Assembly: GCA_020848155.1 (NCBI GenBank)
Contig: JADLAR010000017.1
Span: forward strand, 6,554-70,553
DNA length: 64,000 nt
Source: Candidatus Sumerlaeota bacterium
GTDB lineage: Bacteria; Sumerlaeota; Sumerlaeia; SLMS01
Direction: 5' to 3'
How positions within the stretch are numbered: the stretch's first letter is position 1; every line of letters starts with the position of its first letter. The notes under the pieces were generated by a model that was given only the letters and a program-made list of their open reading frames with translations, ran no database searches and was not told where the DNA came from. Positions 7,604 through 33,142 of this stretch are shown here, one piece after another. The translations under genes were made by a program, and so were the position numbers.

Positions 7604-7930
7604 AACGGTGGCTGGGAACTCAGGAAAATTTTACGGACTGGTGAAACAGATGAGTCGCGCTTCGGTTTCCTCCAACATTGCGGAAGGTCAATCATGCGGA
7701 CACTTGCGTGACTCTCTCCGATTCATCGACAACGTTCGCGGACCAGTCGCGAAGTTGGGGACGCAGACATTCCTTGTCGGCAAGCCTGAGTTCCCCGACC
7801 AATGCAGGTTCGATTCTGTTGCCACCCAAGTTACCTCTGTCGGACGCCCATTGAACCCATTGAAGAACGCACTTCAAAAGCGCGAAAACGCCTACGAAAT
7901 TCATTCCCAGTAGCCTTACTCTCAGCCCCC

Positions 7931-8818: not shown

Positions 8819-8821
8819 CGC

Positions 8822-13000: not shown

Positions 13001-13001
13001 C

Positions 13002-17097: not shown

Positions 17098-19851
17098 CTA
17101 AAAGATCTTGTACTTGATTTCGATCTCTTCGTCGCTGCGGCCATCCGGTTCGCGTGGCTGTTCTGCCAACGGCTTCGGATTCCCCGTCCCCGAGGGTGGC
17201 GAAAATGCCGGAAAGGGTGCAGGGTCATTCTTCGGGGCGCCACCCGGCAGTGGATTCTGGTCACCGGACAAACTTCCGCGGCTGGATCGCCGCGCTGGCG
17301 GGCCGCCTCCGCCGGAAATTCCCAAGATGGAACCAAGCCTCTCTGTCATACCGCCGGGGAAGGCCGTATCGGGACGACTTCCTGATCCTGTTCCTGATCC
17401 GCGGGAACCCGGCGAAATATCCCCGCGGCTTCCCGGCCGCGGAACATCCGGGCGGGAAACGGACTGGCGGGATGCCGCCGGAGCCAACGGATCCAATTTC
17501 GGCGTCGCTTCCTTTGAGGCTCCCGGATTCGGGATTCCGGGGAGGTTGAAGAATCCGCTCTGCCCGGGGCTTGGCGCTGCGGGCGTTTGCGCCACACCGG
17601 AGGCCCCGGCGGGCTTCAACAAATCCGCGCGACTGGTGCGCAACGGAGTCTTGTCCGTCAGGCCCAATGCGCTCATCAACCCGCCGCCGATTCCACCCAG
17701 CGCCGCTTCCTCGGGAACATCGGCGTCCGCGTAGTACACCGGATCATGCAGCCATTCGTTGTCGGCTTCGTCCTGCGCCGAATCAACGACACGCGTGGAA
17801 GTTTTCAGGAGGCGATGTTGAATCTGGGCGTACTTGAACAAACCACCCGTCATCGCGTTGCTCAGGCTTAGGAACATTCCCTTCGGTTGCCACCAATCCG
17901 TGTGGAACAGAAGCCCCGCTGCCATCCCTTCGCGCCCGTTGTACTGGCCATCCTCCCGCACAACAAGCTGCTGTGCAAACAGGCGCGCATCCTCCGCCCG
18001 TGAACGATAGTAATCGTCGCCGATGAAATTCGCCAGCTTCACCATCTCGCGATAGCTGATCAGCCCCTGGCACCCCGTGGCGGGTGATGCGACGGAAGTG
18101 ATGTCGCCACCGCGGGTCGCAATCTCGTAACGCCCCAGCATCGAATTGCGCGTGAACGCCACGTTGTAGCTGAAACGCCAGGTCAGCGCCAGATCCGCCG
18201 CCTTCTTTGCGAGGGCCAGCCACTTCGTGTCGCGATCGAGTTCGTACAGGTTGATGTAGGCGACCAGCGCCCAATGACAATCATCGCTCGTGGGCACGCA
18301 GTTCAAGTCTTCAACGGTTCCATACAGCAGCCCATTGCGGACAAACTTTGCGTAGTAGTCGCCCGCCTTGATCGCAACTTCGCGGAAATGCGGCTTCTGT
18401 AGCAGCGACGAGCCCGTTGCGAACGCAGCGATCCACGGAAGCCCTCCGCATCCATCGAAACTTGTGGGGCGACCTGTCGTCAGGTCGTAATAACATGGAA
18501 ATGCGCCGTCATCGCGCTGTGCGCCCATGGCATAATTCAGCGACGACAAGGCCGCTTCGTACCATTGATGGTGATTCGTGCTGTTCCTGATCTCCAGTCC
18601 CAGCGATCGCAGGATGAACAGCACCGCCTCCGCCACCGTGCGCGAATGCGCCGTTCCGTCCTCCGGTCCGAAGCTGCACGACCATCCGTTCTCCTCTGTC
18701 CACGCCGGGAAGATCGTCCCCCCCGGTGCGATTGCCCCCGTGAATTTGTTCAGGATGGCGACGCCGGCGTTGATCGACTCCACGTGCTTCGATTCACGCC
18801 CCGCATGGAGCAACGCGTAGGCAGGCAAGGCCCCGCTCAACCAGCCCGCGTGCATGTGCGCGCGTTCCGTGTACGCACCCTTGCGCCCGAAGTGCCGGTC
18901 AAACGATGCGCTTTCGTAAAGCGCCGCCTGGCGGCTGTCGAAGTGCCAGCGCAAAAGCCCTGCGTGCGCCACCTGCTCCTGTTCCTCCAGGGGAGCCGCA
19001 GCCTTCGCTGGCGGATTTTCCTTCTCATCCGCATAGTAGAGATACCGAACAACCCTGCCATGCGCGTGAAGGTCCGGTTGATCGATGCCCGCCAGAAAGG
19101 TCGTCACCATCGGCGTCGCCTTCGGCAGGACCACGAAGGTCTCTTCCGGTTCGATCTTGTCCTCATGGCAGAATGAAAATTTCACCGGCACTTCGCGGTA
19201 GGGAAAATCCACCCCCAGCGTTGGCTGCCCTTCCTCCGACCCGAAGTGCAGCCCCGTCATTCCAACGCCTTCGGGGTTCTCGCGCGTTCGCCCGAAGACC
19301 CCCTGGGTGGAAACGTAACCGAAGCACCCGTACGTCCATGCACACACAAGCGGCGTCGCGGCGCGATCCGAGCGGAGCGCCCAATTATTTGAAACCAGCT
19401 TGCGCAGGTCCCGGTTTATTTCAGAGTAGGTTGGGTAGACACGCGTGCTTCCCGGTGGCCTGTTGTTGCCATAGAACACGCCGGGCACAAGCCAGCGCGG
19501 ATCGGCCTCGCCCGTCAGGATCATCTGCGCAGAGACGCGAATTCGCATCTCATCAACGGCATTCTCCACCCGCATCTCAACCCGCAGCGCATCCAGTCCT
19601 TCCGCTGCTGCCGTGATGCGCCCATACAGGGCAAGCCGCTGCGAGGTGAAGCCGTGGAAATCCGCCGCGTTCGGTCCCGCCGGCACAAGCCGCTGGATCT
19701 GGAAGATCGCGGGCGGCGATCCAGCCTCCGTGATGGTGAACATCAACAGCGGCGTGACAATCACCGGCTGTGCGTCGCCGGTCCGCTGAAGGCGAAGGCC
19801 CCGCGATTCGAAGCTAAGCTGATATTTGCCGACCTGGACGGATGCGGGCAC
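17098..19851 (-). CDS. Large hypothetical protein: a ~690-aa Cys/Trp-rich globular region followed by a ~230-aa Pro/Gly/Ser-rich disordered tail
   Basis: 917-aa ORF with no N-terminal signal peptide. The globular part contains motifs such as DDCHWALVAYINLYELDRD, GCGGLPWIAAF and GWSCSFGPEDGTAHS. These may indicate an (alpha/alpha)-barrel hydrolase- or LanC-like fold, but no family can be assigned by eye. The C-terminal part (plus-strand coordinates ~17100-17800) is low-complexity PGSG-rich and ends EEIEIKYKIF. Confidence 0.6.
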   Translation of the reverse strand: MPASVQVGKYQLSFESRGLRLQRTGDAQPVIVTPLLMFTITEAGSPPAIFQIQRLVPAGPNAADFHGFTSQRLALYGRITAAAEGLDALRVEMRVENAVDEMRIRVSAQMILTGEADPRWLVPGVFYGNNRPPGSTRVYPTYSEINRDLRKLVSNNWALRSDRAATPLVCAWTYGCFGYVSTQGVFGRTRENPEGVGMTGLHFGSEEGQPTLGVDFPYREVPVKFSFCHEDKIEPEETFVVLPKATPMVTTFLAGIDQPDLHAHGRVVRYLYYADEKENPPAKAAAPLEEQEQVAHAGLLRWHFDSRQAALYESASFDRHFGRKGAYTERAHMHAGWLSGALPAYALLHAGRESKHVESINAGVAILNKFTGAIAPGGTIFPAWTEENGWSCSFGPEDGTAHSRTVAEAVLFILRSLGLEIRNSTNHHQWYEAALSSLNYAMGAQRDDGAFPCYYDLTTGRPTSFDGCGGLPWIAAFATGSSLLQKPHFREVAIKAGDYYAKFVRNGLLYGTVEDLNCVPTSDDCHWALVAYINLYELDRDTKWLALAKKAADLALTWRFSYNVAFTRNSMLGRYEIATRGGDITSVASPATGCQGLISYREMVKLANFIGDDYYRSRAEDARLFAQQLVVREDGQYNGREGMAAGLLFHTDWWQPKGMFLSLSNAMTGGLFKYAQIQHRLLKTSTRVVDSAQDEADNEWLHDPVYYADADVPEEAALGGIGGGLMSALGLTDKTPLRTSRADLLKPAGASGVAQTPAAPSPGQSGFFNLPGIPNPGASKEATPKLDPLAPAASRQSVSRPDVPRPGSRGDISPGSRGSGTGSGSRPDTAFPGGMTERLGSILGISGGGGPPARRSSRGSLSGDQNPLPGGAPKNDPAPFPAFSPPSGTGNPKPLAEQPREPDGRSDEEIEIKYKIF

Positions 19852-20026: not shown

Positions 20027-21130
20027 ATGCGCATCCTTTTTGTTTCCGACCAAGATCAATGCCGGGGCCCCATGGCGCGGGCCATCGCGGAGCGCATGGC
20101 CCGGCAGCAGATGATGGACAGCGCCGTCTTCGATTCCGCCGGCCTGCGAGCACCAGCCGGCGAACCTCCCACGCTCGAAGCCGCATCCTTCATGCACGGC
20201 GAAAAAATTTCCATCATCAACCATCGCAGCAAGCGCCTCACCGTTCCCCTCGTCGACGGTGCCGACGTCATCCTGTGCATGACCAAGGCCCAGATGGACG
20301 AGGCGCGCAAGGCTGCCGGCCCCGACTACGCACCCAAATTCGTCCAGATCAACGAGGCCGTCGACCTGACAACCACCCGCATGGACGTCATGCCACCCGG
20401 TCCCAATACCGCCGGCATGCGCCGACTTTACGCCGCCCTCAGCGCCACCATCGGCCGCCTCATTCGCACCCTTGAAGAACCCGACGCCTCACCCGAATAT
20501 TTCGGTGCGAAGACAATGCCCAAGAAGCTTCGGCCCGGTGCCGGCGGCGCAGGCCCCCGCGTCAGCGAAACCACACTCGATCCCGAAAAGCGCGTCTTCA
20601 TTGCGAACATGATCTTCAGCCTCATCGAACGCGCCTTCGAGCCAATGACCACCGGCGCCCTGCTCGATCAGCTTGCCGCCGCCGGGCACCAACTCCCCAA
20701 AGCCGAACTTGAGGAACTCCTGCGCCAGGACCTCCACGGCCTCGCGCGCATGGACAAGGATGGTGCCTGGAACATCATCCACGGCGCAGCCGAGCGCAAA
20801 CGCGACAAGGCCCGCGCCGAAGCACGCGCCCGCGCCGAGGACCAACGCAAAGCCCGCGAAGCCGAAAAGCCCAAGGATTTGGACAAGAACCTCACAGAGG
20901 ACGTCGCGTTTGAACTGCTCGGCATCAGGAAGGAAACCTCCCGCGCCGATGCCCAGAAAAAATACCGCGCACTCCTCAAGCGCTACCACCCCGATCGCTT
21001 CCACGACGACCCTTCATTCCTCGAAATGGCCGAGGCCAAGACCCGCCGCGTCAACGCGGCCTGGGAATTCTTGAAGGAACGCCTCCCGGAAGGCGAAGCC
21101 CCCCCCGAGGCGGAGGAAGTACAAAGTTAG
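20027..21130 (+). CDS. Fusion protein: N-terminal LMW-PTP/ArsC-like domain with a degenerate P-loop, and a C-terminal DnaJ J-domain
   Basis: The N-terminus MRILFVSDQDQCRGPMARAIAE aligns to the LMW-PTP P-loop (L/V)CxGNxCRSPxAEA. The nucleophile Cys is replaced by Ser while the second Cys and the Arg are kept. The C-terminus FELLGIRKETSRADAQKKYRALLKRYHPDRFHDD...VNAAWEFLKE is a J-domain with the HPD motif. Confidence 0.7.
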   Translation: MRILFVSDQDQCRGPMARAIAERMARQQMMDSAVFDSAGLRAPAGEPPTLEAASFMHGEKISIINHRSKRLTVPLVDGADVILCMTKAQMDEARKAAGPDYAPKFVQINEAVDLTTTRMDVMPPGPNTAGMRRLYAALSATIGRLIRTLEEPDASPEYFGAKTMPKKLRPGAGGAGPRVSETTLDPEKRVFIANMIFSLIERAFEPMTTGALLDQLAAAGHQLPKAELEELLRQDLHGLARMDKDGAWNIIHGAAERKRDKARAEARARAEDQRKAREAEKPKDLDKNLTEDVAFELLGIRKETSRADAQKKYRALLKRYHPDRFHDDPSFLEMAEAKTRRVNAAWEFLKERLPEGEAPPEAEEVQS

Positions 21131-21139
21131 GCGGCTCCC

Positions 21140-22351
21140 TCAGCCACAACGCTCGATCACCATCGCGATGCCCTGACCCACGCCGATGCACATTGTGCAG
21201 AGCGCACGCTGCTTGCCGGTTCGCGTAAGTTGTCGCGTGGCGGTGGTGAGCAAGCGCGCGCCGCTCATGCCGAGCGGATGACCCAGCGCGATGGCACCAC
21301 CGAGTGGGTTGATCCGCGGATCATCGTCGGCGAGCTTCAACGCCCGTGAACACGCGAGCGCCTGCACGGCAAAGGCCTCATTCAGTTCAATGATGTCCAT
21401 GGCATCGAGCGTAAGCCCCAGGCGCTGGAGTAATTTTTGGGTCGCCGGAACAGGGCCCATGCCCATTATCCGGGGCTGGACGCCGGCCGTGGCCGCGCCA
21501 ACGATTCGGGCACGAGGCACAAGGCCATGGCGCGTGGCCGCCGCGGCGGAGGCAATCAGCAGCGCCGCCGCCCCATCGTTGACACCGGATGCATTTCCAG
21601 CCGTGACGGTGCCGTCACTGCGAACGAAAGGTTTCAACTGTGCAAGTTTCTCGATCGATGACGGCCGCGGATGCTCGTCCTTTTCGACAACAACGGGATC
21701 GCCCTTCCTGCGCGGAATCGTGACGGGAATGATTTCCTCTGCAAGCTGCCCACCCTGCTGCGCGGCGGCCGCCTTCGTCTGGCTCCAACAGGCGAAGCGA
21801 TCCTGATCCTCGCGGGAGATGGCAAAGTCGACCGCGAGATTTTCCGCAGTCTCCGGCATTGAGTCGACGCCATGCGCCGACTTGATGCGGGGGTTGATGA
21901 AACGCCACCCGATCGTGGTGTCCTGAAGTTCGGCCTGTCGCGAAAATGGCTCGGCGGCTTTTCCCATGACGAAGGGGGCGCGCGACATGCTTTCCACGCC
22001 GCCAGCAAGGATCACCTCCGCCTCACCTGCGGCAATCGCGCGGGCCGCAGTGGCAACCGCATCCATGCCAGACCCACAAAGGCGATTCACAGTGACTGCG
22101 GAAACGCCCACGGGCAGGCCCGCCAGCAACGACGCCATGCGCGCCACGTTGCGATTGTCTTCACCCGCCTGATTCGCGCATCCCATGATCACGTCATCAA
22201 GCGCGTCCCAATCCATCCTGGCATTGCGATCCATCAATGCGCGAATGGGAATTGCGGCAAGGTCGTCCGTGCGCACCGAGGACAACCCCTCGCCATAACG
22301 GCCAACGGGGGTGCGAATCGCATCGCAGATAAAGACGTCTTTCATGGTCAT
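21140..22351 (-). CDS. Acetyl-CoA C-acyltransferase (thiolase II, 3-oxoadipyl-CoA/acetoacetyl-CoA thiolase-like)
   Basis: 403 aa with thiolase signatures (VNRLCGSGMDAV around the catalytic Cys; C-terminal NEAFAVQALA and GGAIALGHPLGMSGAR; final CIGVGQG). Confidence 0.9.
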   Translation of the reverse strand: MTMKDVFICDAIRTPVGRYGEGLSSVRTDDLAAIPIRALMDRNARMDWDALDDVIMGCANQAGEDNRNVARMASLLAGLPVGVSAVTVNRLCGSGMDAVATAARAIAAGEAEVILAGGVESMSRAPFVMGKAAEPFSRQAELQDTTIGWRFINPRIKSAHGVDSMPETAENLAVDFAISREDQDRFACWSQTKAAAAQQGGQLAEEIIPVTIPRRKGDPVVVEKDEHPRPSSIEKLAQLKPFVRSDGTVTAGNASGVNDGAAALLIASAAAATRHGLVPRARIVGAATAGVQPRIMGMGPVPATQKLLQRLGLTLDAMDIIELNEAFAVQALACSRALKLADDDPRINPLGGAIALGHPLGMSGARLLTTATRQLTRTGKQRALCTMCIGVGQGIAMVIERCG

Positions 22352-23688
22352 GCCCGCGCTGCCACCGTCATTGCCGGAATCTGCTTCGCGATCAGTTGGA
22401 AGCCCCTCTGAAGCTCAACGCAGAGTTGATCGATTTCCACCTCTGTCATCGGCGTCGAAATGGTGCCGGAGCAGGTGTTGATCAGCATGAATCCATGATT
22501 GAACATGTGGTCGAGAAGCGTTCGAACTGCCGTGGCCTCGTTGGGATTCGCATAGGCGGCACGATAATCGGCAGGTGGTTCGGGCTTCATGTGAATGCGG
22601 AACATCGACCCGGCACCGGTCACACAGGCGGAAACTCCCTCGGCATTGATGATTTCTGCAATCTGGCGGCGCGCACGCTCACCAAGGGCATTGAGACGAG
22701 CAACCTCCCCACGGTCAAACAGGCGCATTGCCGCGAGGCCCGCGGACAAGGTCACCGGATTGGCGGAGAATGTGCCCGAATGCGGAAAGAGCACCTTGTC
22801 CGCCAGCGGATTCAACACATCCATCACGTCTGCACGCCCGGTGATGGCGCCGACGGGAAACCCACCGCCAATCGCCTTGCCGAGCGCCGTCAAGTCGGGG
22901 CGTTGCCGGTACCACTCCTGCGCTCCACCATACTCCGACCTGAATGTGATCACTTCATCAAAGATGAGCAACGCGCCATTGCGTCGTGTCCATCCATGAA
23001 GTGCCTCGATGAAGTCCGCAGAGGCGGGAACCATTCCCACGCGGTGGGGAATCGGATCAATCAGCACGGCCGCCAGGTCGGATCGATGTTGATCGAGAAG
23101 CGCTAGGGCGCGCACCGAATCGTTGAAGGGAAGGATGACAACCTCATCCAATGCGGAGGCCGGGGTTCCTGCGGTGACGGGAACGCTGCGCGGATGCGCA
23201 GCCTCCCCCCAGTTTGCGGGGCTGGCCGTCTGGCTGACTTCCGCATAATCGTAAAGCCCGTGATAGGCGCCCTCGACCTTGGCGATCTTCGGACGCGACG
23301 TGAATGCACGCGCCGCCTTGAGGCAGCACATGATCCCCTCGGTCCCTGAATTCACGAAGCGTATCTTTTCAAAGCTCTGGGAGCGCCCCACCATGTGTTC
23401 GGCAAACTCGACCTCCACCTCCGTGGCGAGCGTGTACGCCGTGCCGCGGTGAAGTTGTTCGGTCACGGCGGCGATGATTGCCGGATGCGCGTGGCCGTGA
23501 ATGAGCGAAGCCATGTTGTTTGCAAAGTCGATGCGGCAATTGCCGTCGATGTCGGTCACGCGGCATCCCTCGCCATGCGCCGCGTAGGCGGGATGGGGCT
23601 TGCGAAGAACCGCGTTTCGGCTGACTCCGCCGGGAAGGACCTTCAGTGCACGCTCGTAGAGATGCTCACTGCGTGTTTGACCCTTCAT
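22348..23688 (-). CDS. Class-III PLP aminotransferase/aminomutase, HemL (glutamate-1-semialdehyde 2,1-aminomutase)-like
   Basis: 446 aa. The N-terminus SEHLYERALKVLPGGVSRNA resembles the HemL N-terminus, and the rest has class-III aminotransferase architecture. It overlaps the neighbouring genes by 4 bp on each side. Confidence 0.8.
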   Translation of the reverse strand: MKGQTRSEHLYERALKVLPGGVSRNAVLRKPHPAYAAHGEGCRVTDIDGNCRIDFANNMASLIHGHAHPAIIAAVTEQLHRGTAYTLATEVEVEFAEHMVGRSQSFEKIRFVNSGTEGIMCCLKAARAFTSRPKIAKVEGAYHGLYDYAEVSQTASPANWGEAAHPRSVPVTAGTPASALDEVVILPFNDSVRALALLDQHRSDLAAVLIDPIPHRVGMVPASADFIEALHGWTRRNGALLIFDEVITFRSEYGGAQEWYRQRPDLTALGKAIGGGFPVGAITGRADVMDVLNPLADKVLFPHSGTFSANPVTLSAGLAAMRLFDRGEVARLNALGERARRQIAEIINAEGVSACVTGAGSMFRIHMKPEPPADYRAAYANPNEATAVRTLLDHMFNHGFMLINTCSGTISTPMTEVEIDQLCVELQRGFQLIAKQIPAMTVAARA

Positions 23689-24374
23689 TGTGATTCGCTC
23701 CTGGGGCGTCCATCGATGATTGGCGCGCCGGTCTTTTCCTGAAGTTCCCTGAATGTGATCCCCGGCGCGATTTCCTGCGCCACGAAACCTTCCGGCGTCA
23801 CATCAATGATCGCGAGGTTTGTATAGACACGATCAACCACGCCGCATCCGGTCAGTGGATACGTGCATTCGGCAACAAGCTTTGGTTCCCCGGTTTTCGT
23901 CGTATGCTCCGTCAGGATCACGACGCGCTTAACCCCCGCCACCAGATCCATGGCACCGCCGACAGCGGGAATCGCATCGGCCTCCCCCGTGGACCAGTTC
24001 GCAAGGTCGCCGCGCGACGACACCTGCATTGCACCCAGGACGCTCACGTCAAGGTGTCCGCCCCTGATCATTGCAAAGCTGTCGGCGTGATGGAAGTAGG
24101 CGGCACCGGCAATCGCCGTGACCGGCTTCTTCCCCGCATTGATCAACTCGGGATCCTCACTGCCGGCGGCGGGCGAAGGCCCCACGCCGAGCAACCCGTT
24201 CTCCGTGTGAAAGATGACCTCGTGATCCGGAGGCACATGCTGGGTGACCAGTTCGGGAATACCGATTCCCAGGTTCACATACGCACCATCGTGGATGTCA
24301 CGCGCGGCAAGGCGCGCCATGTCGTGGCGCGACCATCCCGTTGGTTGTTGGCTTGGCTGGCTCATGGGTAGCAC
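23685..24374 (-). CDS. 3-oxoacid CoA-transferase subunit B
   Basis: 229 aa, conserved throughout with CoA-transferase beta subunits (GIGIPELV ... ENGLLGVGP ... SFAMIRGGHLDVSVLGA). Confidence 0.9.
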   Translation of the reverse strand: MLPMSQPSQQPTGWSRHDMARLAARDIHDGAYVNLGIGIPELVTQHVPPDHEVIFHTENGLLGVGPSPAAGSEDPELINAGKKPVTAIAGAAYFHHADSFAMIRGGHLDVSVLGAMQVSSRGDLANWSTGEADAIPAVGGAMDLVAGVKRVVILTEHTTKTGEPKLVAECTYPLTGCGVVDRVYTNLAIIDVTPEGFVAQEIAPGITFRELQEKTGAPIIDGRPRSESQ

Positions 24375-25072
24375 CTGCCTTCCTTCACCAGGTGTGATTC
24401 CTGTTCCGGGCAGGGCACCTCCACCAGGCGCTGGACAAAAATTCCCGGCGTCACGACTGCTTCCGGATCAATGCAACCGGACTCCACGACCTGGCGCACC
24501 TGCACGATGGCGACCTTGGCGGCCATGCACATGATCGGCCCAAAATTCCGCGCCGTCTTTGTATAGACAAGGTTGCCATGGCGGTCCCCCCGGTCGGCGC
24601 GAACCAATGCAAAGTCCGCCCGCAACCCGCGCTCCATCACATAATCGCGACCATCAAAGGTGCGCCGCTCCTTGCCCTCGCCAAGCTGCGTTCCCACCGC
24701 CGTGGCCGTGAAAAACGCCGGGATTCCGGCACCGCCGGCCCGAATCCGCTCCGCCAGGGTTCCCTGCGGCACGAGTTCCAATTCGATCTTCCCCGCACGA
24801 TAAAGCTCGGGAAAAACCATCGAGTTCGTACTTCGTGGATACGAGCAGATCATCCGCGCGACCTGCCCATTCGCGATCAATGCCGCGAGGCCAACCCGCC
24901 CGCTCCCGGTGTTGTTGCTGATCACCGTCAGGTTGCGGGACCCCTTGTCCACCAAGGCGTGGATCAATTCAATGGGGCTTCCCGCTTCACCAAACCCCCC
25001 GATCATTACCGAGGCCCCGTCCCCTATGTCTGCCACCGCATCGGCCGGTGAACTCCACCTTTTCTGGATCAT
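24362..25072 (-). CDS. 3-oxoacid CoA-transferase subunit A
   Basis: 236 aa, conserved with CoA-transferase alpha subunits (GASVMIGGFGEAGSPIELIHAL ... SNNTGSG). Confidence 0.9.
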   Translation of the reverse strand: MIQKRWSSPADAVADIGDGASVMIGGFGEAGSPIELIHALVDKGSRNLTVISNNTGSGRVGLAALIANGQVARMICSYPRSTNSMVFPELYRAGKIELELVPQGTLAERIRAGGAGIPAFFTATAVGTQLGEGKERRTFDGRDYVMERGLRADFALVRADRGDRHGNLVYTKTARNFGPIMCMAAKVAIVQVRQVVESGCIDPEAVVTPGIFVQRLVEVPCPEQESHLVKEGRCYP

Positions 25073-26673
25073 GTAAGTCCTTGTTGAGCCATGCGCTTGC
25101 CGTGAACTTCCTCCAAGGCGTGCTCGATTTCGTCAAGCTCCTCCTCAAAGAAGAACTTGTCCGTATCGAGCGGCAGCAGGCGATCCACGCGGTTTTCATG
25201 TTCATCATAGACCGCAAGGAACACCTTGTCCATCCACGCCATGTTGCGCGCTTCGTTGAACTTCAGCGCCAATGCCTTGCGCCCACCAACGGTTGCCTCG
25301 CCCAGGATTGAAAGCTTGCCTGCGGAGGTGGTCATCGTAATGTAGCGCGAGGGGCGATGCAGCGACGCCAGCGACCGGTAAATGAGGTTGGAAATCTTCT
25401 CGATGTCGGCAAGCGGCGCCGCGAAATAGTGATGCTCGCCCGTTGGACGCGCACAATACATCGAGTGAAACCGGATCAGCAGCGTCGCAAGGATGTTCCC
25501 AAGGTCGATCCAGTTCTGTGCAGACCGCTTGATGTCCGTCTTCCCATCCGCGTCCATGAACAGGCTCACGTGATTCATGATGGGGCTTTGGCTGCGCACC
25601 ACCACGCCGTGTGCCTGCAACCGGCGCACCGCCGCGATGGTCGTCGGGTTTAGCAGTTCACGCGGCGTCGAGAAATGCGCCATCCACGACAACTGCACGC
25701 CATTCTCGTGCATGATGTCGAACAGTTCCAGGATCTTGCCGTAGCGCTCGGTCAGAATCATGTCCGGCTGGTACGTCAACGCCCGCGAGGCGATACGGAC
25801 CGTGCGGATGTGCAGCAGCGCCGGATCCTCGATGATCGGCATCACATACTGGCGCATCCGCTCATAGGGCAGGTACCCCGCATCACCACCCGTGATCAGC
25901 AGGTCCGTCACCTCTGTGTGCTTGCGCAGGTAATCGTGGATCTGCGCGATGTCATCCTGGATGAACATGTCCCGGTCACCACGCACCTGGGCATGGCGGA
26001 AGCAATACGTGCAGAACGCAAAACACGTCTGCGTGGACTTGTCGAAAACCAACTGGGTCTGCGGATACTTGTGCTGGCTGCCCTCAACGATCTCGATGCC
26101 ACCATCCTCGCGCTCAAGCCACGGCTTGTTCAGGAGCTGATGCCCATCGTGCGGATTCGTCTGGTCCATGTACTGCTCAACAACGATCGCGCGCGCCTCC
26201 GGTGTTCCCGCCGCCGCATACTTTGCCACGATCTCGGGCCGCATCATTCCCGGCTGGGGAAAGATCAACTGGTACAGGGAATCGTTCTCGTAGCGGCTCC
26301 AGTTGATCGCGTTCAGAATGTGACTCGTCGCCTTGAATCGATACACCTCCACGAACAATTCGCGCTCGATGACATTGCCAAGGTGTATGCCGTTCTCCCT
26401 CAGGACCCCCAACACACGGCGAAAGCCCTCCAGCCCCTCATACTGGGCCCGTTCCGGAAACAGGACGGCACTCGTTTCCATCAAACCCGACAGGTGGGGA
26501 TACGTCGCGTGCAGGCGCGCCAGCAGCCCCCGTGGCAGTAGACGCTCGCGCTGGATGATGGCGCGAATTTCCTGCGGATAGCCATAGCGCTCCATCATCG
26601 CCTCGATATCGGACTCGGTCATCCTGGCCGAAATCGTGTCCTGCGGCGATGGAAGCGTGGTACTCTTATTCAT
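25069..26673 (-). CDS. KamA-family radical-SAM aminomutase (lysine/glutamate 2,3-aminomutase-like) with a ~130-aa N-terminal extension
   Basis: The Cx3Cx2C cluster CFAFCTYCFRH and downstream KamA-family blocks are present. The start is placed at MNKSTT (26673); the track ORF extends to 26781. It overlaps the CoA-transferase A start by 4 bp. Confidence 0.8.
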   Translation of the reverse strand: MNKSTTLPSPQDTISARMTESDIEAMMERYGYPQEIRAIIQRERLLPRGLLARLHATYPHLSGLMETSAVLFPERAQYEGLEGFRRVLGVLRENGIHLGNVIERELFVEVYRFKATSHILNAINWSRYENDSLYQLIFPQPGMMRPEIVAKYAAAGTPEARAIVVEQYMDQTNPHDGHQLLNKPWLEREDGGIEIVEGSQHKYPQTQLVFDKSTQTCFAFCTYCFRHAQVRGDRDMFIQDDIAQIHDYLRKHTEVTDLLITGGDAGYLPYERMRQYVMPIIEDPALLHIRTVRIASRALTYQPDMILTERYGKILELFDIMHENGVQLSWMAHFSTPRELLNPTTIAAVRRLQAHGVVVRSQSPIMNHVSLFMDADGKTDIKRSAQNWIDLGNILATLLIRFHSMYCARPTGEHHYFAAPLADIEKISNLIYRSLASLHRPSRYITMTTSAGKLSILGEATVGGRKALALKFNEARNMAWMDKVFLAVYDEHENRVDRLLPLDTDKFFFEEELDEIEHALEEVHGKRMAQQGLT

Positions 26674-26804
26674 GATAGAAACTCCGGTGCTCAGCTTAAA
26701 AAACCACGGGCAACGATACGATCGTTCGCTCCAACCCTTGCGGTGCGCAAGGAGAAACGGAATCCCCGCCTCGGAACGCACAACAAGCCCCGGTAGAAAT
26801 CGAC

Positions 26805-26895
26805 AGGCCCGGGCAAGTACCCCACAGGCCGCGAACTACAAGAACCCTCACCCCCCGTGGTACAAAATATGGGGTGAGGATCAGCGTCACATCAT
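26805..26895. repeat. Left copy of an imperfect inverted repeat flanking the DUF4411/ImmA cassette; contains a 9-bp-stem hairpin
   Basis: 26817-26875 (gtaccccacaggccgcgaactacaagaaccctcaccccccgtggtacaaaatatggggtg) matches the reverse complement of 28889-28945 at about 48 of 59 positions. An internal hairpin pairs cctcacccc (26846-26854) with ggggtgagg (26871-26879). Confidence 0.55.
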
Positions 26896-27033
26896 GGTTG
26901 ATAGCGAGGGGTGCACAAATGAGGGCTGGTCACACGCGCTCGCGATCGTAAGACTCGCAGTTGATGGTCAGATAGCCATTCCCGAGGAGGTGCTCCTCTA
27001 TGACGGATTCAAAGGCCAGTTCTGAGGTCCGCT

Positions 27034-27528
27034 TTATATAGCCCGCCCCAGAACGAATCTTGCGCGCTCTCGACGCAGCATCTCATACGGGGTTACGCAG
27101 GTGATCCCCAACCCAATGCAGACATCGGGGATCTTGATCTTCCGGATCGAGGACGAAGGAACTTCATGCGTCACCACGATGTGGCCGCCTGCGTGCGCCT
27201 GCGCGGCAAGGTAGTAGTCCGCCACTTGGAGGAAGTTGGCGATGGCTGCGGGCTCGTAGTGCCGGCCGGTTGTCCATTCGCTCACCGACCGAAATGACGG
27301 CGCGACTGTCCCGTCTGGCGGCACGAAGAACGAAGGTCCTCGCACGTCCGCCCATTCGGACAGTTCGTCCTCAACATCACGCAACTCGTAGCCCACTTTC
27401 TCCACGCTGAAGACCGAGCCTGCGCGGTGACGCTCGACGAGCCACTCCCAGAAGGCCGGACAGAAGTCGAACCCATAGTGGAGATTCTTTGCGCTGATGA
27501 AGACGTTGGCGTCGAGGAGGTATGCCAT
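27034..27528 (-). CDS. DUF4411-family protein, predicted PIN-like nuclease domain
   Basis: 164 aa beginning MAYLLDANVFISAKNLHYGFDFCPAFWEWL..., the typical DUF4411 N-terminus with a PIN-like acidic D in LLDAN. It lies 1 bp downstream of the XRE-ImmA gene. Confidence 0.7.
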   Translation of the reverse strand: MAYLLDANVFISAKNLHYGFDFCPAFWEWLVERHRAGSVFSVEKVGYELRDVEDELSEWADVRGPSFFVPPDGTVAPSFRSVSEWTTGRHYEPAAIANFLQVADYYLAAQAHAGGHIVVTHEVPSSSIRKIKIPDVCIGLGITCVTPYEMLRRERARFVLGRAI

Positions 27529-27529
27529 T

Positions 27530-28678
27530 TCAGAACCTCATTCCAAACCCGGCGCTCAGGCGGCGAAACGTCGACATCTTCCTGAAGCCGAGCATTCGGA
27601 ATGCCTCGGTGAAACTCGAACGCCCCTCCAATGTGCTAACTACCACGGCCCGCGCGAATCGCTTGCCAACCCGGGCGCCGAGCGTGTTGTAAAAGCTCCC
27701 CCCACCCTCCGTCTGAGCGGAGAGCGCTTGAAGCCGAGCGAGTTCCGCCCGAAAGGCGGTCCTGTAATCTTCGCGAGACAGCCCTCCAGCATCGTGGATT
27801 CGACGCAGAATGACAAGCCTGCTGACCTTGAAGACCCGCGCCAGACGATCAAGCTCCCCGGGCAATTCCGCAGCGGGGTTGTAGGTCCTGCGGAACACCA
27901 GCATCGGAACCAGCAGTTCCGCTGCGACCGCGTCGCACCAACGCTCGACATTGTGGCTGGGGGCCGTTGTCAGTTCCACATCAGAAAGCGCAGATTGTCC
28001 GACCCAAATGTGCGCGAGTTCGTGGGCGAGGGTGAACATCTGCGCGGACTTTGTATCCGACCCATTCACGAAGACTAGCGGCGCGTTCGCATCGACCAGA
28101 GCGAACCCCCTAAACTCCTTTGGGTTGAGCTTGCGATGATTGTCGCTTCCGACCACTCCGCTGACCATCACCAGCACTCCCGCAGCGTCCACCAGTTCGA
28201 TGAACCGCCGCAGGGCATCGGTCCAATTCGACATCCGGCTTCGCTCCTCCAAGTCAAAACTGAGTGTCGCCCGCATTTGGGCCGCTGTTTCCACCACATC
28301 ATTGTTCGGGGAGGCGGAGCCGACAAATGGGATTGGCGGTTCCCCCACCGTCCGGGCGAATTCGCGATACCAATCCTGGCGCTGTTGACAGAGATAGATC
28401 GTGTCCAACAGGTCGGGGCTGGGTGCGGTGAAGCGCTCGCCGGGCATCGTTCGGAAATCGGGGACGGGGATTTGTTCCTGCGGAGGTTCCGCGAGGAAAA
28501 GATAACCAACCGGCACATGCACGGCCTTGGCAAAACTTTCCAACTGCTTCATCGTGGGCATGGCCTCGCCACGCTCCCACATCGGCAGCTTGGCGAATCG
28601 CCCGGCGAGCGATTCGAGGTCATGCCCGGTGCGTTCCCGCGCCCAGCGGAGGAGTCCTGGCTGTACTTCTACACGCAT
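27530..28678 (-). CDS. XRE-family HTH domain fused to an ImmA/IrrE-family zinc metallopeptidase
   Basis: An N-terminal HTH-like region is followed by the HEXXH motif HELAHIW and conserved ImmA/IrrE blocks (FTLAHELAH ... ERWCDAVAAELLVP). The start is assigned to MRVEVQ (28678); the track ORF extends to 28705. Confidence 0.8.
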   Translation of the reverse strand: MRVEVQPGLLRWARERTGHDLESLAGRFAKLPMWERGEAMPTMKQLESFAKAVHVPVGYLFLAEPPQEQIPVPDFRTMPGERFTAPSPDLLDTIYLCQQRQDWYREFARTVGEPPIPFVGSASPNNDVVETAAQMRATLSFDLEERSRMSNWTDALRRFIELVDAAGVLVMVSGVVGSDNHRKLNPKEFRGFALVDANAPLVFVNGSDTKSAQMFTLAHELAHIWVGQSALSDVELTTAPSHNVERWCDAVAAELLVPMLVFRRTYNPAAELPGELDRLARVFKVSRLVILRRIHDAGGLSREDYRTAFRAELARLQALSAQTEGGGSFYNTLGARVGKRFARAVVVSTLEGRSSFTEAFRMLGFRKMSTFRRLSAGFGMRF

Positions 28679-28857
28679 CACGCTGGCATTACGCCTTCCT
28701 TGCACCTTATGTCCACCCTACCTTTCCTTATCCACGCGCCACAGAGTTCGCGTCCCAACTCCGCCTGGGATGCCCTTCGGCGAGTTCATGCCGCACCACG
28801 TCGAAAGTAAATCAAGCCAAGAGTTCGGTCGCGGGACTCGTCCTTGGCTCGGTAGAA

Positions 28858-28950
28858 GACCCACATCCTCAGGGTGGGATATGTGATGCCCCCTTTTTCT
28901 GTACCATGGGGAGTGAGGGTTTTCGTGGTTCGCGGCCGGTGGGGCGCGGG
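28858..28950. repeat. Right copy, in inverted orientation, of the repeat flanking the DUF4411/ImmA cassette
   Basis: The reverse complement of 28889-28945 is ~80% identical to 26817-26875. The hairpin is degraded to a 4-5-bp stem in this copy. Confidence 0.55.
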
Positions 28951-29165
28951 GCCGTGGCGGTCTCCCCTGCGTTCATTTTGGGCAAGGTCAGGCTGGCAGC
29001 AAGCGTTGCGGCTGTCAAGTAGCCCAGCCAGGAGTGGGGCGGTGCTTGTTGCATGCCTCGCGCCGGTCGCCGCCGATCACGCCAATGTCCTTCATGCCGG
29101 TGTTTTCCCCTAGCGGCATGGCCCCTTACCCGGTAGGCACCTGCTATTCCTGATCAGGAGACTGG

Positions 29166-31541: not shown

Positions 31542-31615
31542 GCGAGCGCGGCGCCGCCGGGCCTGGGGACGCGAAGCCCGCCGCGCAGGATGAGGCGCAG
31601 GGACGCTCGCAACGC

Positions 31616-33142
31616 GTGATGGGCGCGGCGGGAAAAATGTCCGGCGCGATGGGGATCGGATTTTTTGTCAACCTTGTCGGAAACCTTTTCCTCGCGCGGA
31701 TCCTGCAAACAGCGGAGATGCTGGGTGTCTGGCGTTCGCTGCAACTCCTTCTCCAGTACGCATTCTTCCTGAACCTCGGCGCCTCGCACGGCCTGGATCG
31801 CGTTGGGCCTACGATGGTTTCGCGCGGGCAATTGGTGCGCTATCGCCGCGCCATGGGCGCATCGCTGGGTTTCAGCCTGGTGCTTCCGATCATCGCCAGC
31901 ATCGTGCTGGGGTGCGCTATTCCGTTCCTGCAATCCGTGCCCGTTCAAATGGGCGCCATCGCGCTCGTAATCCTCATGCCGCTCCAGCAATTCTACATCT
32001 TCGGCGACCTGGCGTTGATGTATGAAAAGAAGTATGGCACGCGCGCCAAGGCCACGTTCGGCTACACAATGCTGCGCATCCCGCTCATGCTGTTGCTGGC
32101 GTGGTGGATTGGCTTGGCGGGTGCGCTGATCGCCTACATTGCCAGTGTCATCGCCGTGTCTGTTTACTTCATTTACAAGAGCGAAATGCGTCTTCAGCTC
32201 TCGCTGCACAGGCGCTTTGCAAGGAGCCTGCTGCTGTCGGGCCTGCCAATCACGCTGTTGTCGTTTGGCGACATGGCGATCCAGACGGTCGACAAGTGGA
32301 TGGTGCTTCTGCTGGGCCATGAAACAGCGATGGGGCTTTACACGATGGCGATCTTTCCACTGCCGCTCCTGATGCTGCTGCCGGCGTCGCTGCGTGACGC
32401 AATGAATGTGGAGATCTTCGACCACGCGCGGCAAAAGGGTGGCGCGGAGGGCGTGCGCGCGCTGTACAGCCACACGCTGCAAATCATGGCGCTGGGATCG
32501 CCGGTGGTCATGGGGACGATCTTTTACGGCGTGCCATGGCTGATCAAGGCGATGCTGCCGGCGGACATGCATCCCTCAATTCCCGCGGTGGAACTGCACG
32601 CGGTCGTGGTCTACCCCCTGCTGATCGTTCAAACGGGACTGGCGGTGCTGATCACGTCGCGGCTGGAAATCAAGTCGTTCTTCATCATCAGCGCCCTCGC
32701 GCTGTTTTCCGCCGCTGTCACGTGGGTACTGTTCCGCCATGGCGGCTTCATTCCGCCGGAAGCCCCGGATGATCCGATGCACACGCGCGAGCAGGCGATT
32801 CTGAAACTGGTGCTGGTTGTCCACGCGTGCGTGTGGTCGGCCTATGCGTTGTTCATGCTGACGCTGAACCATGTGAAGTTTGGCGTCGCAATGGGGACGT
32901 CGATGATGCGGGCGGTGGCCTACCTGTGCCCGATGATCGTGTCTGGAATCGCACTCTACGGAATCCAGTGGATGATGAAACAATCGCCGCTGCCGCCGTA
33001 CACGCTTGCAAACGCGGCGATCAGCGGCCTGCTTTACCTGATTGTGTGTGCGCCCGGCGTGATCTACTTGGAGAAGCGCTACGGGTCGGTGAGCGGATTC
33101 CTTGCGGCCGTGAAGCGCCGCATCCCCGGCATCGGTTCCTAG
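31616..33142 (+). CDS. Polysaccharide/oligosaccharide flippase, MOP superfamily (Wzx/MurJ-like)
   Basis: 508 aa, predicted ~12-14 TM helices, with the general sequence character of Wzx-type polysaccharide biosynthesis proteins. Confidence 0.6.
   Translation: MMGAAGKMSGAMGIGFFVNLVGNLFLARILQTAEMLGVWRSLQLLLQYAFFLNLGASHGLDRVGPTMVSRGQLVRYRRAMGASLGFSLVLPIIASIVLGCAIPFLQSVPVQMGAIALVILMPLQQFYIFGDLALMYEKKYGTRAKATFGYTMLRIPLMLLLAWWIGLAGALIAYIASVIAVSVYFIYKSEMRLQLSLHRRFARSLLLSGLPITLLSFGDMAIQTVDKWMVLLLGHETAMGLYTMAIFPLPLLMLLPASLRDAMNVEIFDHARQKGGAEGVRALYSHTLQIMALGSPVVMGTIFYGVPWLIKAMLPADMHPSIPAVELHAVVVYPLLIVQTGLAVLITSRLEIKSFFIISALALFSAAVTWVLFRHGGFIPPEAPDDPMHTREQAILKLVLVVHACVWSAYALFMLTLNHVKFGVAMGTSMMRAVAYLCPMIVSGIALYGIQWMMKQSPLPPYTLANAAISGLLYLIVCAPGVIYLEKRYGSVSGFLAAVKRRIPGIGS

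Follow-up and report, generated by a model that had tools for sequence, protein, structure and literature searches.

A conserved five-gene operon joining a divergent KamA-like radical-SAM enzyme to PcaIJF-type enzymes: a candidate module for 2-aminoadipate catabolism

Layout and conservation of the operon

The window, i.e., the whole stretch of 64,000 nucleotides analysed here from a contig of Candidatus Sumerlaeota bacterium, contains five minus-strand open reading frames at 21140-26673 surrounded by unrelated housekeeping genes. They are listed here in gene order, preceded by the region upstream of the first gene:

26674..27033, no strand: upstream intergenic region, 360 bp; presumed promoter and leader
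25069..26673, minus strand: divergent KamA-like radical-SAM/PLP enzyme, 534 aa; proposed 2-aminoadipate 2,3-aminomutase
24362..25072, minus strand: CoA-transferase subunit A, 3-oxoacid (PcaI-type), TIGR02429
23685..24374, minus strand: CoA-transferase subunit B, 3-oxoacid (PcaJ-type), TIGR02428; alternative ATG start at 24365
22348..23688, minus strand: class-III aminotransferase, GSAM-like subgroup; proposed 3-aminoadipate transaminase
21140..22351, minus strand: 3-oxoadipyl-CoA thiolase (PcaF), TIGR02430 equivalog

A preliminary description of this DNA reported five co-directional genes overlapping by 4-13 bp, and the checked coordinates agree with it. Three junctions are 4-bp ATGA overlaps; the junction between the CoA-transferase subunits is a 13-bp overlap with a GTG start, or a 4-bp ATGA with the ATG at 24365. 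The domain calls for all five products, including the CoA-transferase A and B, class-III PLP enzyme, and thiolase named earlier, were upheld by Pfam and NCBIfam. The longest open reading frame of the radical-SAM gene starts at GTG 26781, the homologues have ~535 aa, and a GGAG lies 8 nt 5' of the ATG of the gene as listed. Neither an Rfam match (E≤1) nor a sigma-70 consensus site was found within 26674-27033. Two promoter-like matches in the scanned region both fall inside coding sequence, and their number is close to that in shuffled sequence.

Homology searches gave 411 species-level hits covering more than 12 phyla, and we examined the loci of the best 80. The radical-SAM orthologues in these 80 loci share 59-80% identity and come from Sumerlaeota, Planctomycetota, Verrucomicrobiota, Bacteroidota, Cloacimonadota, Desulfuromonadales, SAR324, Gamma- and Betaproteobacteria, and others. 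Sixty-six loci had enough downstream sequence to be informative, and 61 of them have all five genes in identical order. The arrangement is thus far beyond chance, and the neighbours of the radical-SAM gene are strictly co-conserved with it. The only locus noted with the radical-SAM and aminotransferase pair but lacking PcaIJF is L071.

The CoA-transferase, thiolase, and aminotransferase

The thiolase scores 685.6 bits on the TIGR02430 pcaF equivalog (cut-off 597) and 703 bits on NF006551 (cut-off 605), and its best PDB match is the beta-ketoadipyl-CoA thiolase of P. putida (6PCA, 570 bits). Subunits A and B of the transferase score 345.7 bits on TIGR02429 (cut-off 128.5) and 300.9 bits on TIGR02428 (cut-off 243.55), values that do not tell 3-oxoadipate from acetoacetate specificity; subunit A also resembles the ScoA acetoacetate transferases (228 bits to 3CDK). 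Since the thiolase and the transferase are of the PcaF and PcaIJ types, 3-oxoadipate is the most likely 3-oxo acid, with succinyl-CoA and acetyl-CoA as the most likely products. The 4-aminobutyryl-CoA or malonyl-CoA proposed earlier would therefore be unlikely products.

The canonical IclR-pcaIJF operon of Rhizobium etli pRetNXC12d has transferase A, transferase B, and thiolase genes in the same relative order, with products 64.5%, 56%, and 67% identical to those of the window. The window operon differs by the aminotransferase gene inserted between pcaJ and pcaF, by the radical-SAM gene in first position, and by the lack of aromatic-ring upstream genes and of the IclR regulator. Given these two additional genes and the missing aromatic genes, 3-oxoadipate would derive from an amino acid and not from an aromatic precursor. 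We regard it as very unlikely that this is an ordinary pcaIJF operon for aromatic catabolism, in which the radical-SAM protein is no aminomutase and, like the aminotransferase, serves some unrelated function. Such pcaIJF-like genes are well known, and the radical-SAM protein falls under the cut-offs of all KamA models and below the threshold of Pfam Radical_SAM. However, the five genes are colinear in nearly all informative loci of a family spanning many phyla and overlap through ATGA in the window, the upstream pca genes (pcaBCDGH) are not recurrent in the flanks of the loci examined, and the radical-SAM protein keeps the fold and key residues of an aminomutase (see below).

The aminotransferase scores 330 bits on the HemL equivalog, for a cut-off of 527, and ~220 bits against HemLs. 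Its best solved relative is StoTA of Sphaerobacter thermophilus (6K8H, 403 bits, 48% identity over 414 aa), whose substrates are beta- and gamma-amino acids (PMC10589169). On both grounds, i.e., the score below cut-off and the nearest solved relative, we rejected its identification as HemL; the 'HemL-like N-terminus' of the preliminary description is explained by a subgroup shared with HemL. The same GSAM-like subgroup includes two other beta-amino-acid omega-transaminases, MesAT of Mesorhizobium (2YKU) and the Variovorax beta-Phe aminotransferase (4AO9). The window enzyme has in common with StoTA the carboxylate-binding Arg (R24), the Asn (N58), and the catalytic Lys. StoTA, MesAT, and the beta-Phe aminotransferase were studied on aromatic and aliphatic beta-amino acids, whereas the substrate proposed here is dicarboxylic. 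We know of no operon partners of this type for any of the three.

A divergent relative of lysine 2,3-aminomutase

The radical-SAM enzyme carries the motif CFAFCTYCFRH at residues 217-227, with C217/C221/C224 as the CxxxCxxC triad. It shares this triad and the fold with lysine 2,3-aminomutase (LAM; KamA, 2A5H) and its relatives EpmB and glutamate/arginine 2,3-aminomutase. The earlier assignment to the KamA family is valid only in a loose sense, because every NCBIfam KamA-type model scores 43-66 bits for cut-offs of 199-650. The equivalogs of LAM (58 bits, cut-off 525), EpmB (43 bits, cut-off 369), and glutamate 2,3-aminomutase (51 bits, cut-off 650) are all missed by large margins, and the enzyme does not group with EpmB. 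The sole solved sequence relative is LAM 2A5H, at 17-18% identity, and the nearest full-length relatives (33-39% identity) are uncharacterised. The AF2 model (pLDDT 81.6, pTM 0.86) has 2A5H as its best and only close Foldseek match (E 5e-12, TMt 0.61, 430 aligned columns), the next one being at 7e-4. Compared with LAM, the enzyme lacks the Zn-site Cys268, has a different C-terminal beta-domain, and has an additional helical N-terminal region of ~105 aa that is specific to the family. Counted from the Cys motif (217 versus 125 in LAM), the N-terminal extension is ~92 aa, shorter than the ~130 aa first described.

In LAM, D293 and D330 reportedly bind the epsilon-amine, R134 the carboxylate, and K337 the PLP. 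A bridged alignment matches R134 to R226 and K337 to K453, the latter equivalence coming from an alignment at 17-18% identity and being placed elsewhere by a greedier profile alignment. The SAM/PLP-site residues R293, H333, Q362, and Y406 are also kept in this alignment. Because fold, Cys triad, carboxylate Arg, PLP Lys, and SAM/PLP-site residues are all retained, the enzyme probably catalyses the same chemistry as LAM, a SAM- and PLP-dependent 1,2-amino shift. The side-chain pocket is different: the two epsilon-ammonium-binding positions are D/D in LAM and D/E in EpmB, whereas here D293 is replaced by an invariant Arg (R409) and D330 by a non-acidic residue. This check of substrate-specifying residues thus disfavours lysine, and the invariant Arg in place of Asp argues for an acidic substrate.

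Genomic neighbours and the proposed pathway

In most loci, the window included, the operon has unrelated housekeeping genes around it and stands by itself. In 7 of the 80 loci, from five lineages, it is flanked by genes leading from lysine to 2-aminoadipate or its semialdehyde: LAT, LKR plus SDH, or P6C dehydrogenase. One locus has L-lysine epsilon-aminotransferase (401 bits to 2CIN) and P6C dehydrogenase (L007); in two (L075, L076), a single strand carries LKR and SDH together with the operon and an amino-acid permease. Another (L024) encodes an FAD oxidoreductase and an ABC transporter for amino acids besides a P6C dehydrogenase equivalog (818 bits, cut-off 730). P6C dehydrogenase is immediately 3' of the aminotransferase gene in L038 and L068, and accompanied by a saccharopine-DH-like gene in L051. 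LysR regulators, chemoreceptors, and various transporters also recur and fit a catabolic role. Other neighbours are at odds with aminoadipate as substrate: Motiliproteus and Halopseudomonas have BCCT transporters, and L071 has a GBBH/TauD-like gene.

In lysine catabolism L-2-aminoadipate is the shared intermediate, and these flanking genes in several phyla point to it as the substrate. We propose, with a probability of roughly 0.6, that the operon forms a catabolic module complete in itself and independent of oxygen, which degrades an acidic alpha-amino acid, most probably L-2-aminoadipate. The computed basis is gene content, order, and conservation, the families to which the lower-pathway enzymes belong, and the conservation of active-site residues. 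The radical-SAM/PLP enzyme would form 3-aminoadipate by transferring the C2 amino group to C3, and the class-III aminotransferase would convert this product to 3-oxoadipate. As strong homology suggests, the PcaIJ-type transferase would then pass CoA from succinyl-CoA to give 3-oxoadipyl-CoA, and the PcaF thiolase would cleave it to succinyl-CoA and acetyl-CoA. In sum, 2-aminoadipate, a 2-oxo acid, and CoA would yield an amino acid, succinate, and acetyl-CoA, with no redox step, decarboxylation, or O2 requirement. The logic of the preliminary description (2,3-aminomutase, class-III transamination to a 3-oxo acid, CoA transfer, thiolysis) is consistent with every line of evidence gathered; its substrates, lysine or glutamate, are the less likely ones.

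A lysine 2,3-aminomutase forming beta-lysine, followed by C3 transamination and cleavage to acetyl-CoA and 4-aminobutyryl-CoA, is extremely improbable. Sources automatically annotate the family as 'L-lysine 2,3-aminomutase', and lysine-catabolic genes adjoin the operon in some genomes, but these (LAT, LKR/SDH, P6C dehydrogenase) already use up the epsilon-amine and deliver 2-aminoadipate. The loss of both acidic residues, the LAM and EpmB scores, and the PcaF-type thiolase also speak against it. Glutamate would be converted via beta-glutamate and 3-oxoglutarate to 3-oxoglutaryl-CoA and then malonyl-CoA and acetyl-CoA, or 3-oxoglutarate decarboxylated to acetoacetate, which would be activated and cleaved. 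An Arg at the D293 position suits any acidic side chain, a mostly solitary operon would suit a ubiquitous substrate, and the ScoA likeness of subunit A would accommodate acetoacetate. Yet we find this quite unlikely: besides the low glutamate 2,3-aminomutase score and a thiolase so similar to a genuine PcaF, the informative flanks hold lysine or aminoadipate genes rather than glutamate or malonate genes, and malonyl-CoA- or malonate-handling genes are not recurrent in the flanks of the loci examined.

A different amino acid whose tail is neutral or anionic is unlikely, the candidates being meso-diaminopimelate (from peptidoglycan, yielding gamma-glutamyl-CoA and acetyl-CoA), 2-aminopimelate, and a quaternary-amine amino acid such as trimethyllysine, even if substrate specificity cannot be given by sequence alone. 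The hints are peptidoglycan-related flanking genes (MurQ-like in L007, GH25 in L081), BCCT transporters (L053, L059, L064, L074; L060 has a distant homologue), and the oxygenase resembling GBBH/TauD in L071. But the lysine-to-aminoadipate context is commoner and from more lineages, the PcaF and PcaIJ identities favour 3-oxoadipate, and a cationic tail is unlikely beside R409. Operating in the biosynthetic direction, the pathway would build 2-aminoadipate, or a beta-amino acid, from succinyl-CoA and acetyl-CoA by way of 3-oxoadipate and 3-aminoadipate, and so serve the synthesis of lysine or of natural products. In principle, each of the four reaction types can be reversed, and the pair in L071 has a biosynthetic look, next to SDR, AIG2-like, B12-binding, and P5C-reductase-like proteins. 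This direction is nevertheless highly improbable, because regulators, chemoreceptors, permeases, and lysine-degrading enzymes recur as neighbours, and LysW/LysX-type or NRPS genes do not in the flanks examined.

The known fates of 2-aminoadipate begin with transamination to 2-oxoadipate, which is converted to glutaryl-CoA by oxoadipate dehydrogenase or to D-2-hydroxyglutarate by the DUF1338 enzyme HglS. The proposed 2-aminoadipate route shares with them the entry metabolite and the upstream enzymes found beside the operon (LAT, or LKR/SDH, and P6C dehydrogenase), but replaces oxidative decarboxylation or the use of O2 by isomerisation of the amine. The closest plasmid-borne CoA-transferase pair, on Tistrella pTM2, adjoins P6C-dehydrogenase-like and DUF1338 genes and has no radical-SAM gene. 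Clostridial lysine fermentation (kamA, kamDE, kdd, kce, kal/kat) likewise starts with a KamA-type enzyme and cleaves a beta-keto acid to products at the acetyl-CoA level; it uses a BKACE-type enzyme where the window has a CoA-transferase and a thiolase. As described before, kamDE, kdd, kce, and kal are missing from the window, and they are not recurrent in the flanks of the loci examined. Our literature searches found no description of the 2-aminoadipate to 3-oxoadipate route, in agreement with the earlier view that the arrangement is no described pathway. If the proposal is true, a new radical-SAM aminomutase would feed the classical beta-ketoadipate enzymes and allow the breakdown of 2-aminoadipate without oxygen.

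Organisation and conservation of the operon

Inspection of the open reading frames of the window bears out the proposal that five genes lie head to tail on the minus strand at 21140-26673:

25069-26673, minus strand: radical-SAM protein, 534 aa (ATG, with GGAG before the start)
24362-25072, minus strand: CoA-transferase subunit A, 236 aa
23685-24374, minus strand: CoA-transferase subunit B, 229 aa
22348-23688, minus strand: class-III aminotransferase, 446 aa
21140-22351, minus strand: thiolase, 403 aa

Three junctions are ATGA overlaps, and that between the two transferase subunits is either a 13-bp overlap with a GTG start or an ATGA with the alternative ATG at 24365. The 360-bp intergenic region upstream of the operon contains no sigma-70 consensus site, and the promoter and terminator scan of the operon region gave nothing better than shuffled sequence. 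We looked for a lysine riboswitch because such an element would have identified the substrate. This candidate was dropped, since Rfam had no match at E≤1 in window 20800-27300, which includes the upstream region, and the leader-RNA search of six diverse operon loci elsewhere returned tRNA alone.

The flanking genes in the window are unrelated housekeeping or defence-like genes: udk, lspA, and a phosphatase/DnaJ gene on one side, a DUF4411/M78-peptidase pair and BamA on the other, and, farther away, a Bat/MoxR operon, ffh, and htrA. The phosphatase/DnaJ gene (20027-21130, plus strand) runs towards the thiolase gene and ends 9 bp from it; its 367-aa product has a low-molecular-weight phosphotyrosine phosphatase domain at the N-terminus and a DnaJ (J) domain at the C-terminus. 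Immediately before the operon on its upstream side (27034-28705, minus strand), an IrrE/ImmA-type M78 peptidase (391 aa, 27530-28705) is followed by the DUF4411 protein (164 aa, 27034-27528); the pair looks like a toxin-antitoxin or phage-defence-type module and is not kept beside the operon at other loci. The Bat/MoxR-type 'aerotolerance' operon (6569-15721, plus strand) is complete, with a MoxR AAA ATPase, a DUF58/VWA protein, a 343-aa ORF of no assigned family, two BatA/VWA proteins, a TPR protein, BatD (672 aa), and another TPR protein. Two long ORFs stand out: one of 917 aa (17098-19851, minus strand) with no Pfam hit at E≤1e-3 and no NCBIfam hit, and one of 992 aa (60465-63443, plus strand) with no Pfam hit at E≤1e-5, located where the GC content of the window is lowest (about 0.54 vs about 0.60 elsewhere). 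The ORF of 787 aa at 29154-31517 (minus strand) mirrors one of 791 aa at 29166-31541 (plus strand). Since only the plus-strand ORF has family hits (BamA, 336 bits), its antisense counterpart is a shadow ORF due to high GC. At ~28000-32000 the GC skew switches from negative on the left to positive on the right, and its cumulative curve reaches a minimum near 29-30 kb, at BamA. A replication origin at this switch, near 29-31 kb, is unsupported: there is no DnaA-box cluster, and DnaA-box-like sites near the switch (one at 28728) are no commoner than in shuffled sequence.

A scan of one genome per species revealed a relative in 411 species, and we examined the loci of the best 80 of these hits. 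They come from Sumerlaeota, Planctomycetota, Verrucomicrobiota, Eisenbacteria, Krumholzibacteriia, Edwardsbacteria, SAR324, Bacteroidota, Ignavibacteriota-like bacteria, Fibrobacterota, Gemmatimonadota, and Cloacimonadota, and also from Desulfuromonadales, Betaproteobacteria, and cultured Gammaproteobacteria (Shewanella, Photobacterium, Motiliproteus). The five genes have the same order and strand in 61 of the 66 loci with enough downstream sequence, with median identities to the window proteins of 64-73%. No broadly co-conserved sixth gene was found among the flank families of the 80 loci. In several large contigs, as in the window, the operon stands alone amid unrelated genes. A Deltaproteobacteria MAG (L071, 6325-15737) has orthologues of the aminotransferase and radical-SAM protein only (62% identical each), without CoA-transferase or thiolase, next to a GBBH/TauD-like dioxygenase, an SDR, an AIG2/gamma-glutamylcyclotransferase-like protein, a 608-aa B12-binding-domain protein, and a P5C-reductase-like gene. 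In that genome the two enzymes may serve another purpose, perhaps a biosynthetic one.

Enzymes of the operon

The lower two steps, CoA transfer and thiolysis, are predicted from strong homology. The thiolase scores 685.6 on the PcaF equivalog TIGR02430 (cut-off 597), and its best solved relative is the beta-ketoadipyl-CoA thiolase PcaF of Pseudomonas putida (6PCA, 570 bits). Subunits A and B likewise exceed the cut-offs of TIGR02429 (345.7 vs 128.5) and TIGR02428 (300.9 vs 243.55), two models that cannot tell 3-oxoadipate from acetoacetate specificity. Compared with the canonical IclR-pcaI-pcaJ-pcaF cluster of a Rhizobium etli plasmid, identities are 64.5% for A, 56% for B, and 67% for the thiolase, and those of the transferase are higher than the match of A to Bacillus subtilis ScoA (228 bits) suggests. 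The transferase and thiolase are thus members of the pcaIJF families, and 3-oxoadipate:succinyl-CoA transferase activity is predicted. One could then regard the locus as an ordinary pcaIJF cluster with passenger genes. This is contradicted by the strict colinearity of all five genes and by the missing upstream pca genes. Unlike the aromatic beta-ketoadipate cluster, with its upstream pca/cat genes and PcaR/IclR regulator, the operon has no pcaB/C/D/G/H, catABC, or PcaR/IclR regulator among the annotated ORFs of the window, and none recurs in the flank families of the 80 loci.

Among plasmid-borne CoA-transferase pairs, the most similar one (72% and 68% identity) is on pTM2 of Tistrella mobilis (L085, 336828-351532) and lacks a radical-SAM, aminotransferase, or thiolase partner. 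Its neighbours encode a P6C-dehydrogenase-like ALDH (57% identical to the enzyme of the SAR324 locus L024), a DUF1338 protein (HglS family), an aminotransferase, and a GcvA/LysR regulator, and they belong to the route for 2-aminoadipate that depends on oxygen.

The aminotransferase belongs to a HemL-like subgroup. It scores 330.3 on TIGR00713 (HemL), below the cut-off of 527.3, and solved HemLs match it at about 200-221 bits. Its closest solved relative is the omega-transaminase 6K8H of Sphaerobacter thermophilus (403 bits, 48% identity over 414 residues), which was characterised on beta- and gamma-amino acids and whose R36 is reported to bind the substrate carboxylate (PMC10589169). R36 and N70 of 6K8H correspond to R24 and N58 here, and the catalytic lysine is kept too. 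The possibility of a genuine HemL in a haem-biosynthesis neighbourhood is ruled out by the HemL score and by the adjacency of hemA in only two related loci. Both are from Verrucomicrobiales (L009 and L015) and carry hemA, for glutamyl-tRNA reductase, 0.7-1.2 kb upstream of the five genes. Nothing else in our results recalls the HemL alternative, and the arrangement probably reflects lineage-specific synteny.

The radical-SAM protein is 100% identical to 'hypothetical protein IT570_07980' of a Candidatus Sumerlaeota MAG. It presumably works much as the LAM-type aminomutases do and falls by score outside every curated KamA family. On TIGR00238 (KamA family) it scores 63.7 bits (cut-off 199.2), with a match restricted to residues 194-370. 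All KamA-type models (KamA family, AblA, EpmB, and glutamate and arginine 2,3-aminomutases) give 43-66 bits against cut-offs of 199-650, in the core only: 58.1 vs 525.4 and 43.1 vs 369.3 for TIGR03820 and TIGR03821 (LAM/EpmB), 51 vs 650 for TIGR04368 (glutamate), and 53.4 vs 600 for TIGR04468 (arginine). The sole solved relative detectable by sequence is lysine 2,3-aminomutase (LAM, 2A5H). The AlphaFold model (pLDDT 81.6, pTM 0.86) also matches 2A5H best (E 5e-12, target TM 0.61, 430 aligned columns), eight orders of magnitude ahead of the next fold (7e-4). Within this LAM-type fold, the CxxxCxxC motif for the [4Fe-4S] cluster and SAM is present, with C217/C221/C224 at the positions of LAM C125/C129/C132. 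LAM has a Zn-site cysteine that this family lacks.

We aligned the protein to LAM and EpmB with MAFFT, using relatives of 33-39% identity as bridges. Of the early profile alignments to LAM, the first ended short of the PLP lysine and the greedy one gave an implausible, non-conserved lysine; the bridges resolved the position. In the bridged alignment, the invariant K453 and R226 match LAM K337 and R134, which we take to bind PLP and the alpha-carboxylate, respectively; in a greedy hhalign run, K337 fell instead on K466, which is not invariant. R293, H333, Q362, and Y406 correspond to LAM R198, H230, Q258, and Y290. The two positions of LAM D293 and D330, which hold the epsilon-ammonium of lysine, are D/D and D/E in LAM and EpmB. 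Here the first is replaced by an invariant arginine (R409) and the second by a non-acidic residue (P441 or T446). The role of the two positions reportedly comes from the LAM structure of Lepore et al. in 2005, and Ruzicka and Frey are said to have described in 2007 a basic residue at the first one in glutamate 2,3-aminomutases. An arginine at the position of LAM D293 is also present in many members of sister clades. We read the protein as a putative PLP/SAM 2,3-aminomutase whose substrate would have an anionic side chain, and hence not be lysine. Lysine, one of the substrates suggested in the preliminary description, is thus disfavoured by the loss of the acidic residues that bind its side chain. 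Glutamate, the other, is compatible with the invariant arginine and at odds with the PcaF/PcaIJ identities and with the neighbours described below.

The orthologues form a tight group, which makes up a single cluster at 50% identity among 1.84 billion representative sequences. Beyond it, the closest full-length relatives are uncharacterised KamA-like proteins, 33-39% identical, that align from about residue 105. The N-terminal extension noticed initially is indeed present, helical, and family-specific, and measures about 105 aa rather than ~130 aa. One KamA-like relative (P0144, 882 aa, 34% identical) has, fused at its N-terminus, a flavin N-monooxygenase domain resembling histamine N-monooxygenase (259 bits), which suggests a natural-product role for a sister clade of the family.

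Variable neighbours of the operon

The recurrent neighbours in the 80 loci are LysR regulators, chemoreceptors, universal stress proteins, a PaaI-like thioesterase, and assorted transporters, a set that points to the breakdown of an amino acid that the cell either imports or makes itself. The operon might instead run in the biosynthetic direction, an option disfavoured by the regulators, permeases, and degradative neighbours.

Some neighbours are more specific. In a Verrucomicrobiae MAG (L007), a divergent pair encodes a lysine epsilon-aminotransferase (LAT; 401 bits to that of Mycobacterium tuberculosis, next family 158 bits) and a P6C/aminoadipate-semialdehyde dehydrogenase. In two Cloacimonadota loci (L075 and L076), a co-directional array starts with saccharopine dehydrogenase (SDH; 317 bits to yeast 2AXQ) and lysine-ketoglutarate reductase (LKR; 275 bits to human AASS, LKR domain) and continues through the five genes to an amino-acid permease and a further saccharopine-dehydrogenase-like gene; in L075, a 680-aa ORF between the LKR and radical-SAM genes has no match in the plasmid database. 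In L024, a P6C dehydrogenase equivalog (818 vs 730 bits) is encoded upstream of the operon together with an FAD amino-acid oxidoreductase, a class-III enzyme, an ABC transporter for polar amino acids, and regulators of the GntR and LysR families. This class-III enzyme (L024, 17-1297) matches just the C-terminal half of PRK06148 (718 bits), and the contig end may truncate the gene. We take PRK06148 to represent fused kinase/phospho-lyase proteins related to 5-phosphohydroxylysine phospho-lyase, an enzyme that likewise yields aminoadipate semialdehyde. P6C dehydrogenase is immediately 3' of the aminotransferase gene in two Betaproteobacteria (L038 and L068), and in Desulfuromonadales (L051) it is upstream, with a saccharopine-dehydrogenase-family gene downstream.

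Altogether, in 7 of the 80 loci, from five lineages, the operon adjoins three non-homologous routes from lysine to aminoadipate semialdehyde and the dehydrogenase that makes 2-aminoadipate. The five independent adjacencies of P6C dehydrogenase far exceed chance expectation because there is at most one copy among thousands of genes. The informative cases all point in the same direction, from lysine to 2-aminoadipate.

Other neighbours hint at diaminopimelate, aminopimelate, or a quaternary-amine amino acid as substrate, and do no more than hint: a MurQ-like gene, GH25, BCCT transporters, and the GBBH-like gene of the atypical L071 are scattered among the loci. In Motiliproteus and Halopseudomonas (L053, L059, L064, and L074), a BCCT-family transporter and a PaaI-like 4HBT thioesterase are just upstream of the operon. 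BCCT carriers normally transport quaternary amines, and their presence is not explained by the 2-aminoadipate model. Just downstream, three of these loci (L053, L059, and L074) encode a protein of about 445-465 aa that has a class I/II aminotransferase domain and may be a regulator of the MocR type.

A candidate route from 2-aminoadipate

The general logic of a beta-amino-acid ketolytic pathway, proposed in the preliminary description, very probably applies to the operon. The substrates proposed with it fare less well: the lost acidic residues, the PcaF/PcaIJ identities, and the neighbours indicate a different one, and we favour 2-aminoadipate with some confidence. The radical-SAM/PLP enzyme would isomerise L-2-aminoadipate to 3-aminoadipate, and transamination would then give 3-oxoadipate. 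The latter would be activated by CoA transfer from succinyl-CoA, and thiolysis of 3-oxoadipyl-CoA would release succinyl-CoA and acetyl-CoA. The assignment of the upper two steps draws on family resemblance, active-site residues, and operon logic. As the succinyl-CoA produced could be reused as the CoA donor, the module would be self-contained and redox-neutral, which is consistent with its stand-alone occurrence and its enrichment in anaerobic and facultative lineages. We give slightly better than even odds (about 0.55) to the full reading: that a 2-aminoadipate 2,3-aminomutase and a dedicated 3-aminoadipate transaminase form an undescribed O2-independent branch of lysine catabolism that leads via 3-aminoadipate to the lower part of the beta-ketoadipate pathway and occurs in hundreds of species, most of them anaerobic or facultative, from more than 12 phyla.

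This route differs from clostridial lysine fermentation, whose genes had been noted as missing; no kamDE, kdd, kce, or kal/kat domains were found in the window or in recurrent flank families. It also differs from both known routes for 2-aminoadipate, through oxoadipate dehydrogenase and glutaryl-CoA or through HglS and 2-hydroxyglutarate. Literature searches agree with the initial impression of novelty: they turned up no description of the arrangement and no link of 3-aminoadipate or related terms to any pathway. The parts of the operon belong to known superfamilies; their combination and the two putative upper activities are not described in the searchable literature.

The hypothesis is directly testable because there are cultured carriers (Shewanella, Photobacterium, Motiliproteus). 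If it is true, the radical-SAM 2,3-aminomutases, which act on lysine, glutamate, or arginine, would gain a fourth class of substrate, and the essentially unknown 3-aminoadipate would be a new metabolite. It would also mend a widespread mis-annotation of these genes ('L-lysine 2,3-aminomutase' or 'hypothetical protein', 'HemL-like', 'pcaIJF'), and the enzyme pair could interest biocatalysis for beta-amino dicarboxylic acids or adipate-pathway intermediates. The beta-ketoadipate lower pathway would have been reused for amino-acid catabolism, providing bacteria with a third way to dispose of 2-aminoadipate, without O2 or oxidative decarboxylation and directly to succinyl-CoA and acetyl-CoA. This would explain how lysine breakdown ends in many anaerobic and sediment lineages with saccharopine- or LAT-type lysine genes, such as Cloacimonadota, Bacteroidales, Planctomycetota, Verrucomicrobiota, Sumerlaeota, and Desulfuromonadales.
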